Shown in pieces: positions 6,192 through 10,331 of a stretch of 64,000 bases of DNA. This DNA is from Thermus sp. GTDB taxonomy: Bacteria > Deinococcota > Deinococci > Deinococcales > Thermaceae. The stretch spans positions 117 through 64,116 of the forward strand of contig NZ_JBBIMD010000002.1 of the NCBI RefSeq assembly GCF_037444525.1. The letters are read 5' to 3'. Each line of letters begins with the position of its first letter. Positions within the stretch are counted from its first letter, which is position 1. Position numbers and translations under genes: made by a program. The notes beneath the pieces were generated by a model. It saw only the letters and a list, made by a program, of their open reading frames with translations. It did not search any database and had not been told where the DNA came from.

Positions 6192-7490
6192 TTACCTCCA
6201 CATTCCCATGAATCCCCGGCCTTTGCGCTTCTCCAGGGATTTCATTAGGGCCTTGGTCTCCTCAAAGGCCTTGATGAGCCGGTTGATCTCCTGCACGGTG
6301 GTGCCGCTTCCCTTGGCGATGCGGCGACGGCGGGAGGCGTTGAGGATCCTGGGGTCCTTACGCTCCTCAGGGGTCATGGAGAGGACGATGGCCTCGAGGC
6401 GCTTCAGGGCCCCATCGTCCACCTGAACCCCCGCGGTGAGGCGGTTCGCCCCGGGCAGCATGGAGAGGATCTCGGAAAAGGAGCCCAGCCGCTTTAGGCC
6501 CTGCATCTGCTTGAGGAAGTCCTCCAGGGTGATCTCCTTGGCCGCCTTGGGGGCCTCGGCCTCTAGCCCCACGGCCCGTACCTTCTCCGCCAGGGTGGCC
6601 ACGTCCCCCATGCCCAGGATGCGGCTCGCCAGGCGGTCGGGGTAGAAGGGCTCTAAGCCTTCCGGCTTCTCCGAAACCCCGGCGAAGTAGATGGGCTTAC
6701 CCGTGACGTGGCGGGCGGAAAGGGCGGCCCCGCCTCGGGCATCCCCGTCCAGCTTGGTGAGGATGAGGCCCGTGACCCCAACCCTCTCGTCAAAGGCCCG
6801 GGCCACCCCCAGGGCCTCCTGGCCGGTCATGGCATCCAGGACCAGGAGGACCTCGTCGGGCTTCATGACCTCCTTGAGCCGGAAAAGCTCCTCCATGAGG
6901 GGCTCGTCAATCTGCAGGCGGCCCGCGGTGTCCACCAGGATGAGGTCCCGCACCTCCCGGCGCGCGGCCTCCTCCACCCGGCGGCGGATGGACTCCGGGC
7001 TCTCCCCGTCCATCACCTCCAGGACGGGCACCCCAATCCTCTCCCCCAGGATCCGGAGCTGGGCCCGGGCCGCGGGGCGCTGGGTGTCCGCGGCCACCAA
7101 GAGGGGGCGGCGACCCTTGGAGCGGTAGTAATGGGCCAGCTTGGCCGCGGTGGTGGTCTTGCCCGAACCCTGGAGACCCACCAGGAACCAGAGGTTCTTG
7201 TCCTTTAGGGTGGGCTGGCGGACCTCGCCCCCTAGGGCCTCCTTCAGGGCCTCGTACACCGTGGCGAGGACGATCTCCGCGGGGGTGAGGCTTTCCAGGA
7301 CCTTTTGCCCCAGGGCTCTTTGCCGCACCTCCTCTATGAAGGTGCGGGCCACCTCCAGGTTCACGTCCGCGTCAATGAGGGCCCGGCGGATCTCCCGCAG
7401 GGTTTCCTTCAGGTCCTCCTCGGTGATCCGGCCCCGGCCCCTCAGCCGGTCTATGGCCTCCTGGAGTTTGGCCGTAAGCCGCTCAAACAT
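6192..7490 (-). CDS. ffh: Signal recognition particle protein Ffh
   Basis: GLQGSGKTTT, DTAGR, TKLDGDARGG, M-domain RRRRIAKGSG; ATG 7490 (MFERL). Confidence 0.98.
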   Translation of the reverse strand: MFERLTAKLQEAIDRLRGRGRITEEDLKETLREIRRALIDADVNLEVARTFIEEVRQRALGQKVLESLTPAEIVLATVYEALKEALGGEVRQPTLKDKNLWFLVGLQGSGKTTTAAKLAHYYRSKGRRPLLVAADTQRPAARAQLRILGERIGVPVLEVMDGESPESIRRRVEEAARREVRDLILVDTAGRLQIDEPLMEELFRLKEVMKPDEVLLVLDAMTGQEALGVARAFDERVGVTGLILTKLDGDARGGAALSARHVTGKPIYFAGVSEKPEGLEPFYPDRLASRILGMGDVATLAEKVRAVGLEAEAPKAAKEITLEDFLKQMQGLKRLGSFSEILSMLPGANRLTAGVQVDDGALKRLEAIVLSMTPEERKDPRILNASRRRRIAKGSGTTVQEINRLIKAFEETKALMKSLEKRKGRGFMGMWR

Positions 7491-7590
7491 GCACCACTCC
7501 TCGGCCCCCATCCCAGGGCCGCGCTCCAGGATAGGCCACTCTCCCTTAGCGTGTCAACCTCAATTTTTCTGATATTTCTAGCGGGCACGG

Positions 7591-7619
7591 TTGACAGGGG
7601 CCCGGGGGCTCCCTAGGCT
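7591..7619 (+). promoter_or_regulatory. Sigma-A promoter of the mgtE leader
   Basis: TTGACA, 17-nt spacer, TAGGCT. Confidence 0.8.
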
Positions 7620-7629
7620 GGAAAAGGTT

Positions 7630-7665
7630 ATGGGCGAGCGACTGCCCTCGAGTCCCAGGCCCTGA
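7630..7665 (+). CDS. Putative proline-rich leader peptide MGERLPSSPRP
   Basis: 11-codon ORF just after the promoter with three CCC Pro codons; followed by mutually exclusive hairpins that include the mgtE Shine-Dalgarno. Confidence 0.5.
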   Translation: MGERLPSSPRP

Positions 7666-7707
7666 GGGCCGCCCAAGGGCGGCCTTCGGGCAGAAAGGAG
7701 GCCGCCT

Positions 7708-9054
7708 TTGGAGAGCGTCCTGAACCCCATAGTCCAGGCCCTAGAAGAGGGCGACACCCTAAAGCTGAAAAGCATCCTGGAACACACCCACCCCCAGGCC
7801 CTCCTGGAGGTCTGGGACGAGCTTAAGGGCGAACACCGCTACGTCCTCCTCACCCTCCTCTCCAAGGAAAAGGCGGCGGAGGTCTTCTCCCACCTGCCCC
7901 CGGAGGCCCAGGCGGAGTACCTGAAAACCCTCCCCCCCTGGCGGGTGCAGGAGGTCCTGGGGGAGCTCTCCCTGGACGACCTGGCGGATGCCCTGCAGGC
8001 GGTGGAGGCGGAGGACCCCGACCTGGCCCGCCGCCTCAAGGCCAGCCTAGACCCCAAGACGCGGGCCGAAGTGGAGGAGCTTGCCCAGTACGAGGAGGAT
8101 GAGGCGGGCGGCCTCATGACCCCGGAGTACATCGCCCTCAAGTCCTCCATGACCGTGGAGGAGGTCCTGCGCTTCCTGAGAAGGGCCGCCCCCGACGCGG
8201 AGACCATCTACTACCTCTACGTGGTGGACGAGGAAGGGCGCCTCATCGGGGTCCTCTCCTTGAGGGACCTCATCGTGGCCGACCCCAGGACCCGGGTGAA
8301 GGAGATCATGAACCCGGAGGTGGTCTTCGTCCGCACGGACACCGACCAGGAGGAGGTGGCCCGCCTCATGGCGGACTACGACTTCACCGTCTTGCCCGTG
8401 GTGGACGAGGAGGGGAAGCTGGTGGGCATCGTCACCATTGACGACGTGGTGGACGTGCTGGAGGAGGAGGCCACGGAGGACATCCACAAGCTGGCCGCGG
8501 TGGACGTTCCGGATCTGGTCTATAGCCAGGCCTCCCCGGTCCAGCTGTGGCTCGCCCGGGTGCGCTGGCTGGTGATCCTCATCCTCACGGGCATGCTCAC
8601 CAGCTCCATCCTCCAAGGGTTTGAAAGCGTCCTGGAGGCGGTCACCGCCCTGGCCTTCTACGTGCCCGTCCTCCTGGGCACCGGGGGGAACACGGGCAAC
8701 CAGTCGGCCACCCTCATCGTCCGCGCCCTGGCCACCCGGGACCTGGACCTGAAGGACTGGCGGCGGGTGCTCATGAAGGAAGCGGTGGTGGGCAGCCTCC
8801 TGGGCCTCACCCTGGCCCTCCTTCTCCTCCTCAAGGTGGCCTGGGACGGCCACCCCGCCCTCCTCCCCGTGGTGGGGGTGGCCCTCTTCCTCCTGGTCCT
8901 CTTCGCCAACCTGGTGGGGTCCATGCTCCCCATGGCCCTAAGGCGGCTTGGGGTGGACCCCGCCCTGGTTTCCAACCCCCTCATCGCCACCCTCTCGGAC
9001 GTGATGGGCCTCCTCATCTACCTGATGGTGGCCCGGACCCTCCTTGGCCTATAG
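7708..9054 (+). CDS. mgtE: Magnesium transporter MgtE
   Basis: N-domain, tandem CBS (AGGLMTPEY), transmembrane GGNTGNQS and PLIATLSD motifs; TTG start after AGGAG. Confidence 0.97.
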   Translation: MESVLNPIVQALEEGDTLKLKSILEHTHPQALLEVWDELKGEHRYVLLTLLSKEKAAEVFSHLPPEAQAEYLKTLPPWRVQEVLGELSLDDLADALQAVEAEDPDLARRLKASLDPKTRAEVEELAQYEEDEAGGLMTPEYIALKSSMTVEEVLRFLRRAAPDAETIYYLYVVDEEGRLIGVLSLRDLIVADPRTRVKEIMNPEVVFVRTDTDQEEVARLMADYDFTVLPVVDEEGKLVGIVTIDDVVDVLEEEATEDIHKLAAVDVPDLVYSQASPVQLWLARVRWLVILILTGMLTSSILQGFESVLEAVTALAFYVPVLLGTGGNTGNQSATLIVRALATRDLDLKDWRRVLMKEAVVGSLLGLTLALLLLLKVAWDGHPALLPVVGVALFLLVLFANLVGSMLPMALRRLGVDPALVSNPLIATLSDVMGLLIYLMVARTLLGL

Positions 9055-9065
9055 TGGGGAAAGCC

Positions 9066-10331
9066 ATGCGCATGATTGTGGAATGGACCAAGGGCAGCCC
9101 CTTGCGCCACGCCTGGAAGGAGGGGAGGCTGGTCCCTTTAGGGGAGGACCGGCCAGCCCCGGTGAACTATGGGCTCCTGCCGGGGCTCCTAAACCCCGCG
9201 GACGGGGAGGAGGTGGACGCGGTCCTCCTGGGCCCGCCCCACCCCCTGGGGGAGGCGGAGGGAGAGGTTTGGGGCCTCCTCCACCTGGAAGACGGGGACC
9301 ACAAGGTGGTCCTGGCGCCGGAAGGGTACGAGGGGGAGGACCTTGGGCCCCTCCTCGCCTGGTTCACCCCGGAAAGGGCCCCGAGGCTTTTGCCCAGGGA
9401 GGCCGCCCTGGCCTTTCTGGAGGAGAGGAGGCGGGAGCGGGACCGGTACCTGGGGGCCCTTTTGGGCTTGGCGGTAGGGGATGCCCTGGGGGCCCAGGTG
9501 GAGTTCATGCTCCAAGGGAGCTTTCCCCCCGTGGCGGAGATGAAAGGGGGTGGGCCCCACCGCTTAGGCCCCGGGGAGTGGACGGACGACACCGCCATGG
9601 CCCTCTGCCTGGCGGAAAGCCTTCTGGAAAAGGGGTTTGACCCTTTGGACCAGATGCGCTGCTACCTCCTTTGGTACCGGGAGGGGTACAACAGCCCCAA
9701 GGGGTACTGCTTTGACATCGGGACCACCACCCGCCGGGCCCTGGAAGGTTTCCTGAGGACCGGGGACCCCTTCTCGGGGCCCGAAGAAGAGAGCGCCGCA
9801 GGGAACGGGAGCCTCATGCGCCTGGCCCCCGTGGCCCTGGCTTACGCCGGAAGCCCAAGGCTTCTGGAGTACGCCCGGCTTTCCGCCCGCACCACCCACG
9901 GGGCCCGGGCCGCCTTGGAGAGCACGGAGGTCCTGGCCTGGCTTCTAGAGGGGGCCCTTCGGGGGAGGCCCAAGGCAGAGCTCCTGGCCCTAAAGCCCTT
10001 CCGGGGCAGGCCCCTCCACCCGGACGTGGCCGAGGTGGTGGAGGGAAGCTTCTGGAGGCGGGCCCAGGGGGAGGGGTACGCCCCCAGGACCCTCGAGGCC
10101 GCCCTCCACGCCTTCGTCCACACGGAAAGCTTTGAGGAGGGGATGCGCCTTGCGGTGAACCTAGGGGGGGACGCGGACACCGTGGGGGCGGTCTACGGCC
10201 AGCTGGCCGGGGCCTACTACGGCCGGGGGGCCATCCCCGAAAGGTGGCTTGAGCCCCTCTATCTGAGGGAACGGATAGAGGAGCTGGCCTTTGCCCTCTA
10301 CAGGATGAGCATGGCGTCTCCTAGGGAGTAG
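9066..10331 (+). CDS. ADP-ribosylglycohydrolase with N-terminal inorganic-pyrophosphatase-like domain
   Basis: N-terminal PVNYGLLP...DGEEVDA...DHKVV; C-terminal GLAVGDALG, WTDDT, GNGSLMRLAP, GGDADT. Confidence 0.85.
   Translation: MRMIVEWTKGSPLRHAWKEGRLVPLGEDRPAPVNYGLLPGLLNPADGEEVDAVLLGPPHPLGEAEGEVWGLLHLEDGDHKVVLAPEGYEGEDLGPLLAWFTPERAPRLLPREAALAFLEERRRERDRYLGALLGLAVGDALGAQVEFMLQGSFPPVAEMKGGGPHRLGPGEWTDDTAMALCLAESLLEKGFDPLDQMRCYLLWYREGYNSPKGYCFDIGTTTRRALEGFLRTGDPFSGPEEESAAGNGSLMRLAPVALAYAGSPRLLEYARLSARTTHGARAALESTEVLAWLLEGALRGRPKAELLALKPFRGRPLHPDVAEVVEGSFWRRAQGEGYAPRTLEAALHAFVHTESFEEGMRLAVNLGGDADTVGAVYGQLAGAYYGRGAIPERWLEPLYLRERIEELAFALYRMSMASPRE

Follow-up and report, generated by a model that had tools for sequence, protein, structure and literature searches.

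The M-box (ykoK), the usual regulator of mgtE in Firmicutes, is a metal-binding RNA fold of ~160 nucleotides (nt) that has no upstream open reading frame (uORF). The only genes for which sensing of Mg2+ by means of a uORF is, to our knowledge, described are enterobacterial mgtA, corA, and mgtCBR, and there the effect is exerted through Rho. A different use of a leader ORF is made by the erm, cat, and cmlA leaders, in which alternative hairpins lie beyond the ORF; one of them buries the downstream Shine-Dalgarno sequence (SD) and start codon, and a ribosome held in the leader ORF shifts the pairing and exposes the SD. At high Mg2+, mgtA and corA of E. coli and Salmonella are repressed when their leader ORFs, mgtL and corL, are translated efficiently (PMC11552253), and Pro and acidic residues render elongation sensitive to Mg2+ (PMC11552253 and work cited there). 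Here we analyze the leader of mgtE in a 64,000-nt stretch of DNA from Thermus sp. (GCF_037444525.1, contig NZ_JBBIMD010000002.1), hereafter the window, to which all positions refer.

At 7591-7711 the window holds a promoter, an 11-codon uORF, and two competing hairpins, A and B, all 5' of mgtE (7708-9054, plus strand), which encodes a Mg2+ channel of 448 amino acids with Pfam MgtE_N, two CBS, and MgtE domains. We propose that this leader is a ribosome-operated translational attenuator of mgtE built from four RNA segments (R0-R3), a reading to which we assign a probability of about 0.55; uORF translation probably sets the amount of MgtE channel made. Our search of the literature found no paper on the regulation of Thermus mgtE (TTHA1060 included) and nothing usable on Thermus transcription start site (TSS) maps.

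Like the leader ORFs MgtL (of mgtA), CorL (of corA), and MgtP (of mgtCBR), the Thermus uORF is very short, lies 5' of a Mg2+ transporter gene, and carries Pro, and often acidic, residues near its N terminus. In MgtL and CorL, as in our model, progress of the ribosome on the uORF selects between two exclusive RNA conformations, and efficient translation goes with repression (PMC11552253). A first-pass annotation of the locus had drawn the parallel with MgtL but with an output at translation initiation. The inverse logic does agree (PMC11552253) and R3 comprises the SD and the start codon, but the likeness is not one of homology. The Thermus leader has no sequence or Rfam similarity to MgtL, its uORF appears to be almost leaderless, and only one Pro is invariant. 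In our model for Thermus the output is a blocked SD and start codon rather than Rho-dependent termination, and the controlled gene encodes a channel, MgtE, rather than a P-type ATPase or CorA.

The arrangement R0/R1/R2/R3 has the topology of segments 1-4 of ermC. As in the erm and cat leaders, the SD and start codon are sequestered by a hairpin (B), with covariation that reaches the start codon, and by computation the exclusive hairpin A depends on the position of the ribosome, the unpaired probability of the SD being 0.09 or 0.65 (see below). A ribosome held in the Thermus uORF would likewise shift the pairing and expose the SD. Unlike the erm type, the Thermus leader does not imply an antibiotic inducer, and because its uORF stop codon is enclosed in the anti-sequester hairpin, normal termination would drive the OFF state. 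The Thermus switch would also be kinetic, unlike the erm type, because the OFF hairpin is the ground state even with segment 1 covered. We conclude that the mechanism places the element with leader-peptide translational attenuation, whereas its function places it with the MgtL/CorL type, and that it is homologous to neither.

The M-box resembles the Thermus leader in lying 5' of mgtE and in being expected to lower expression when Mg2+ is sufficient. Its covariance model (RF00380) gave no match at E values up to 10 here, in the outgroup leaders, or upstream of a second mgtE paralogue. A search of 6500-9000 against Rfam at E up to 10 returned no M-box, Mg_sensor, or other family, only unrelated noise, and scans of the outgroup leaders and of the sequence ahead of the second paralogue likewise gave no Rfam family.

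Two Mutually Exclusive Hairpins Precede mgtE

R1 (GAGGGCCGCC, 7664-7673, plus strand as are all the leader features), an SD look-alike, begins at the second base of the uORF stop codon and forms the 5' arm of hairpin A. It is followed by the A loop (CAAG, 7674-7677), which is 3-6 nt long and of variable sequence among species, and which in hairpin B pairs with the start-codon region of mgtE. The shared strand is R2 (GGCGGCCUUC, 7678-7687), an anti-SD. After it come the B loop (GGGCAGAAA, 7688-7696; 7-10 nt and variable, with just the GAAA ahead of the SD conserved) and the 3' arm of hairpin B (7697-7711), which comprises R3 (GGAGGCCGCC, 7697-7706), U7707, and the TTG start codon of mgtE (7708-7710). 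The mgtE SD, GGAGG, lies within R3 at 7697-7701. R1 and R3 are near-copies, each complementary to R2, and therefore R2 can serve as the 3' arm of A or the 5' arm of B, but not both.

Hairpin A pairs 7664-7673 with 7678-7687 (10 base pairs (bp)) and can be extended via U7663 and C7662, which brings the whole uORF stop codon inside its stem. The first-pass annotation had placed this hairpin at 7667-7674/7677-7684; its register (7667 with 7684) was right, but its innermost pair cannot form because a 2-nt loop would remain, and the helix is longer at the base. Hairpin B, given there as 7678-7687 with 7697-7706 and burying the SD, is exact as far as it goes. Here it extends to 15 bp (7673-7687 with 7697-7711), and the SD and all bases of the TTG start codon are paired. 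The minimum free energy (MFE) structure of 7625-7730 contains B and has an energy of -57.1 kcal/mol (z = -3.4; 0 of 200 shuffles as stable). A further pairing that had been suggested, between ctgccc (7642-7647) and gggcag (7688-7693), is complementary in the window but is not conserved, and we take it as incidental because the B loop differs in other species.

Both helices were tested in a model-guided alignment of 31 sequences (A4) that was fitted to B only, with slid registers as controls. Hairpin A, scored over 12 bp that include the U and the GA of the stop codon, is paired in 99.4% of 348 cells, against 25-57% in the slid controls; four of its pairs show compensatory double changes, which none of 500 shuffles matched. 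Hairpin B, also scored over 12 bp, is paired in 98.9% of cells (slid controls, 38-59%), with double changes at three pairs in 11 cells. In one leader (L030) the uORF stop is UAG instead of UGA and the bases opposite are CU instead of UC, which preserves both the stop and the A pairing; in the same leader a C-to-U change in R2 is matched by G to A in R3, and B is kept. In another (L016) the last base of codon 11 has changed from C to G and the base opposite from G to C. The first base of the mgtE start codon covaries with a base of the A loop (CG 23, UG 3, AU 2): the TTG start in the window pairs with an A in that loop, and the species with GTG have C or U there. The alignment thus indicates that the covariation is real, and the claim that A and B exclude each other holds, R2 being shared and both helices covarying.

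The lengths of the A and B loops sum to 13 nt in 25 of 31 leaders through compensating +1/-1 differences (5+8, 6+7). This suggests that the spacing between uORF stop and mgtE start (42 nt) is under a constraint that our model does not explain.

The uORF Has the Marks of a Translated Frame

The uORF (7630-7665) encodes MGERLPSSPRP in 11 codons and ends at a TGA (7663-7665). As the first-pass annotation had it, the frame is present; it is found in 31 of 32 Thermus leaders and on one metagenome contig. Its start is ATG in 31 of 31 leaders that have the frame. The position of the stop is fixed while the codon varies (TGA in 29, TAG in L030, TAA in the metagenome contig L186). Length variants differ by whole codons: 12 codons in a T. 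thermophilus-like clade, 13 in G014, and 20 in G024, that is +3, +6, and +27 nt. The uORF of the T. thermophilus-type leaders (L027-L029) is MREGPLPSSPER. Elsewhere in the leader single-nucleotide changes in length occur, in the spacer between the -10 hexamer and the ATG (9-11 nt), the A loop (3-6 nt), and the B loop (7-10 nt). Indels in multiples of three thus make up 3 of 3 inside the uORF and ~0 of 8 outside it (p roughly 0.01, for events that are not phylogenetically resolved). The sole species that lacks the uORF ATG (G019, leader L010, with ATT in its place) also lacks the in-frame stop and R2, and its RNA folds differently. Judged by these four independent signatures (ATG, stop, indels, and joint loss in G019), the uORF looks translated.

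The peptide is partly conserved, with the pattern M-x-x-x-(L/S)-P-(S/P)-S-(P/R/L/S)-x-x. The window's uORF has three Pro residues, but Pro6 is the sole invariant one; three species have R, L, or S in place of Pro9, and about ten have R or S in place of Pro11. Glu3 is found in about half of the species and a PP motif in one only. The description of the leader peptide as "proline-rich" is therefore a weak one.

Conservation is stronger at the RNA level. Codons Leu5-Ser7 contain R0 (GCCCUCG, 7644-7650), an anti-SD-like segment that is invariant in 30 of 31 leaders, synonymous sites included, and the same is true of the uORF core GCCCUCGAGUC. The Ser codons involved are non-preferred, TCG making up 10.5% and AGT 2.4% of Ser codons in the genes of the whole window. 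Because synonymous sites are invariant despite the rare Ser codons, there must be a constraint at the core beyond amino acids, which could be slow decoding, pairing of the C-rich R0, or both. The predicted partners of R0 are R1 or, once A has formed, the mgtE SD; a role for R0 pairing is suggested by these folding models. A helix between R0 and R1 was returned by RNAalifold. It is uninformative because it is invariant, it is weakened in two species (L026 and L030), and it was kept merely as a possibility.

The invariant CCC-UCG-AGU (Pro-Ser-Ser) lies ~11-14 nt upstream of the GC-rich hairpin A. Together with the frequent Glu3, this combination of one invariant Pro, two rare Ser codons, and a hairpin is compatible with a ribosomal pause, although it is not a recognized strong stalling motif. 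A pause at the end of the frame can also be considered. TnaC ends in an Arg-Pro-UGA type of C-terminal Pro/termination pause. Most Thermus uORFs likewise end in Arg-Pro-UGA, and a ribosome parked there would hold R1 open. Unlike in TnaC, the last two residues vary (RP, KP, KR, WR, RR, ER, RS) and TAG and TAA stops occur, which makes it unlikely that a sequence-specific termination arrest is essential.

The uORF and mgtE share a reading frame in the window and in 24 of 31 leaders. We considered read-through to a uORF-MgtE fusion as the purpose of the arrangement and rejected it, the frames being different in 7 leaders.

Promoter and Initiation of the uORF

A -35 box, TTGACA (7591-7596), and a -10 box of the TAnnnT type, TAGGCT (7614-7619), are separated by a 17-nt spacer. 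TTGAC is almost invariant among 30 Thermus leaders, and the T, A, and last T of the -10 box are invariant columns. The first-pass annotation had called this a consensus promoter. TAGGCT matches TATAAT at just 3 of 6 positions, for which reason a consensus promoter scan did not call it. The -10 hexamer is followed by the uORF ATG after 9-11 nt in 31 leaders, so the 5' untranslated region ahead of the uORF is probably ~3-4 nt long, if the TSS lies where the -10 box places it. In Deinococcus-Thermus, leaderless genes are predicted to make up about 40% of the total (PMC3160421). We rejected initiation of the uORF from an SD, since the AGG or GAGG present lies just 1-3 nt ahead of the ATG. That spacing and the position of the ATG 9-11 nt past the -10 box make a near-leaderless start likelier (PMC3160421).

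Hairpin B Is the Predicted Ground State and Hairpin A Is Predicted to Form First

Isolated hairpin A has a predicted energy of about -20 kcal/mol at 37 °C and -10 kcal/mol at 70 °C, and isolated hairpin B of about -26 and -13 kcal/mol; B alone is the more stable in every species. In the full leader the best A and best B conformers are nearly isoenergetic, with a mean difference of -0.9 kcal/mol at 37 °C and +1.2 kcal/mol at 70 °C. In growing transcripts A is the MFE structure for 3' ends from 7688 to ~7705, and B takes over from ~7710, once the start-codon region is out. The barrier to direct refolding from A to B is ~9.9 kcal/mol, from which the lifetime of A would be very roughly 0.2-10 s, and that of the return is 14-18 kcal/mol. 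A small 5' hairpin, P0, in which uORF codons 2-4 pair with GCCC, is predicted in every species.

The accessibility of the mgtE SD was modeled by folding the leaders at 70 °C while masking an assumed ribosome footprint that runs from -14 to +13 nt relative to the P site, and the values are means of 31 leaders. The unpaired probability of GGAGG was 0.23 in the free RNA and 0.29 with hairpin A enforced. It rose to 0.65 with a ribosome on Ser7 plus A and fell to 0.09, the lowest value, with the stop codon in the ribosomal A site. When A is enforced in the absence of a ribosome the SD stays mostly paired because R3 pairs with uORF segments such as GCCCUC of R0. The earlier proposal that a ribosome reaching the stop codon melts A and turns mgtE off is thus in line with the position of the stop inside A and with the masked folding. 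The converse, that intact A turns mgtE on, has the right direction but is incomplete, since R0 must be covered as well. The picture of A and B as a two-state equilibrium switch did not survive: B alone is the more stable hairpin in every species, and the ON state would be a kinetic one that involves four segments.

A Model for Ribosome-operated Control of mgtE

In our model the mRNA would begin a few nucleotides before the uORF AUG, and hairpin A, being transcribed first, would form first. A ribosome that completes the uORF would unwind A from the stop codon, and the freed R2 would capture R3, closing the ribosome-binding site (RBS) of mgtE; B, once formed, would be effectively irreversible. 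A ribosome lingering in mid-uORF, at CCC-UCG-AGU with its two rare codons, would cover R0 and spare A, leaving R3 without a partner and mgtE ON. With no ribosome on the uORF, R3 would be paired in B or with R0, and mgtE would again be OFF. The translation of mgtE would then be inverse to the efficiency of uORF translation, because a finished uORF closes the RBS and a mid-uORF ribosome opens it. The ON state would require A together with a ribosome over R0, the co-transcriptional order of folding, and the ~10 kcal/mol refolding barrier.

The input is suggested by gene context and by analogy with the enterobacterial leaders, as is pausing itself: cytoplasmic Mg2+ would act on the ribosome. We put the chance that Mg2+ is the signal somewhat short of even. 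At low Mg2+, initiation or elongation on the uORF would fail or slow through 70S instability, intrinsic ribosome destabilization, or slow Pro-Ser-Ser decoding; A would survive, R0 would be covered, and MgtE would be translated. With enough Mg2+ the uORF would be finished, A unwound, and the RBS locked. Initiation by 70S ribosomes at a near-leaderless start might also depend on Mg2+ and could be the input instead. A broader idea, which we hold tentatively and think doubtful, is that the Thermus ribosome is the Mg2+ sensor for mgtE and that, with the "MED..." leader of the sister genera described below, this is an independently evolved, recurrent solution in a deep-branching thermophilic lineage, acting at the level of translation initiation and not of Rho termination. 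Stalling specifically at Pro codons, as the first-pass annotation had envisaged, is less likely again.

If the model is right, the leader is an undescribed counterpart of the MgtL and CorL leaders that acts on translation, and leader-peptide control of Mg2+ transporters reaches another transporter class, phylum, and level of output. Thermus is the source of the reference MgtE structures and of the standard ribosome for structural work, so a native regulatory peptide-mRNA pair from this genus would be open to toeprinting and cryo-electron microscopy. At ~85 nt, thermostable, and with three near-identical 10-mers, the switch would also make a simple model for kinetic, ribosome-driven refolding of RNA.

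Weighing the Model against Its Alternatives

Several observations weigh against this attenuator model. In the folding calculations the SD is paired at equilibrium at every ribosome position modeled, so the ON state must be kinetic; it would need kinetics that go beyond the nearest-neighbor model, and the estimated lifetime of A is only ~0.2-10 s. Strong stalling that depends on Pro or on elongation factor P is not predicted from the uORF sequences because Pro6 alone is invariant and a polyproline motif is absent. The R0 pairings are without covariation, R0:R1 being weakened in two species, and the invariance of the core GCCCUCGAGUC could reflect a role at the RNA level or in protein binding that is unrelated to decoding. 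The covariation of the helices comes from few lineages (L030, L016, and L001/2) because the helices are almost invariant.

Some of the same observations would suit a constitutive damper that reads no signal, in which B keeps MgtE low and the uORF with A provides a short, fixed window for translation or stabilizes the 5' end. B alone beats A in stability in every species, the SD is paired at equilibrium wherever the ribosome sits, and the uORF contains no strong stalling motif; moreover, MgtE is itself gated by cytoplasmic Mg2+ (PMC8104411), and control of its expression is perhaps needless. A damper would, however, have no need of an R1 that competes exactly with R3 and is kept so by compensatory changes, nor of a stop codon within A. 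In sister genera, two different designs of leader each tie a uORF to an anti-SD, which suggests the read-out of a signal, and the enterobacterial Mg2+ transporter genes do read Mg2+ through uORF translation (PMC11552253). We regard the damper as improbable. We give longer odds to a direct RNA sensor of Mg2+ or temperature, in which A and B switch without a ribosome and the uORF is conserved as RNA (R0 and P0), its translation being incidental. Such a sensor would account for the invariance of GCCCUCGAGUC at synonymous sites with rare Ser codons and for the predicted 5' hairpin of codons 2-4 with GCCC in every species, and the ON and OFF states are nearly isoenergetic, with a balance that moves by ~2 kcal/mol between 37 and 70 °C; the sister clade g6 hides its SD in a plain hairpin without a uORF. 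It leaves unexplained the invariant ATG, the stop held in a fixed position as TGA, TAG, or TAA, the in-frame-only indels of the uORF set against those of 1-2 nt elsewhere, and the disappearance of ATG, stop, and R2 together in G019. In addition, Rfam gives no riboswitch match, the M-box included, and an 80-nt leader of simple helices has no obvious ligand pocket.

Control of transcription, with uORF translation deciding on termination by hairpin A or by Rho ahead of mgtE, is highly improbable. The closest precedents, MgtL and CorL, do act through Rho-dependent termination (PMC11552253), and A is a strong GC-rich stem directly 3' of the uORF. However, A is followed by UUCGGG rather than a U-tract, a terminator scan of 7400-7800 was negative, the leader is short and G-rich, unlike a rut site, and what is regulated is R3, the strand with the SD and start codon, an indication that initiation is the step controlled.

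The Leader Is Found Once in Each Thermus Genome

Orthologues of mgtE are present in 32 of 32 genomes of Thermus species, and the 140 nt preceding them can be aligned from the promoter as far as the start codon. In 31 leaders mgtE starts at the same position, with GTG in 28, TTG in 2, and ATG in 1. A covariance model built on the 95-nt leader and run on the 32 genomes matched once per genome, always directly 5' of mgtE, with 92-117 bits in 30 genomes, 67 in G024, and 39 in G019, where the leader is degenerate; the next-best match in any Thermus genome reached at most 33 bits. The check that the first-pass annotation had proposed, conservation and covariation across Thermus mgtE leaders, thus found the leader in 32 of 32 genomes, the uORF in 31 of 32, and covariation in both helices.

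Candidate copies away from mgtE (≤33 bits) were rejected: they share only the GGCGGCCUUC...GGAGGCCGCC hairpin or are weak matches in coding regions. Hairpins of these B arms without a uORF occur at a distance from mgtE in some other Thermus genomes, at L069:301-385, L073:301-383, and L074:601-685, and may represent a shared terminator or repeat-like stem. One further copy of the leader, at 94.5 bits, lies on the metagenome contig L186. A pattern scan of the collections genome_contigs and metagenome_contigs, which apparently contain no Thermus records, gave 121 loci, all of which bar L186 are chance matches in unrelated GC-rich taxa.

In G019 the leader (L010:1425-1516) has ATT for ATG, R2 is deleted, and R0 lies in a 10-bp hairpin with CUUGGGGGCC. 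This genome has a second mgtE paralogue (31% identical), as do G005 and G029, which keep the leader.

A Different mgtE Leader in Sister Genera

The Thermus leader is confined to one genus-level group, although mgtE is present in all five other genera of the family. Most genomes examined of genera g2, g3, and g5 (three g5 leaders excepted) have another, strongly conserved mgtE leader, of 150-180 nt and without an Rfam match; the single genome of g4 has a related, more diverged frame. These leaders lie upstream of mgtE (L036-L068, e.g. L040:247-400). Each has a strong SD and a GUG that open a frame of 17-21 codons, MED(H/Y/S/N)S(S/D)(S/G)R..., which stays in frame across five length variants. 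The frame is followed by UAA-UCCUCGAC, two covarying hairpins, an anti-SD (GCUUCCUUCC), and the mgtE SD GAAGGAGGC. RNAalifold pairs the SD and start of the uORF with CUGCGG.AGCUUCCU in a 13-bp long-range helix, and GCUUCCUUC is complementary at 9 of 9 positions to the mgtE SD GAAGGAGGC. Being complementary to both, the anti-SD is expected to toggle between the RBS of the uORF and that of mgtE. Modeled in this way, the sister-genus leader would have the same inverse coupling in a different build and may represent a second class of mgtE leader that a uORF operates. This recurrence in sister genera supports a regulatory reading but is not a test of it.

The g6 clade (L031 and L032; genomes G066 and G067) encodes MgtE proteins 82-83% identical to that of the window but lacks the uORF leader. 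Its leader of ~35 nt follows a TAGACT -10 box; there the SD GGGGG is base-paired to UCUCC, and a second helix, CACGGC with GCCGUG, covers the start codon.

Neighboring Genes

The ffh gene (6192-7490, minus strand) is divergent from mgtE. Its promoter, on the minus strand, consists of TTGACA (7557-7552), an 18-nt spacer, and TATCCT ending at 7528. Within 7528-7580, which includes this promoter, an AT-rich block beside it, CCTCAATTTTTC...ATTTCTAG, is almost invariant across Thermus species and is partly kept in other genera too (GTCAA..CAATTTTT); its conservation exceeds the need of a promoter alone. Downstream, a gene for an ADP-ribosylglycohydrolase (9054-10331, plus strand) begins with a GTG that overlaps the stop codon of mgtE, and because of this overlap the two genes may be co-transcribed. 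The first ~130 residues of the ADP-ribosylglycohydrolase are without a Pfam match.

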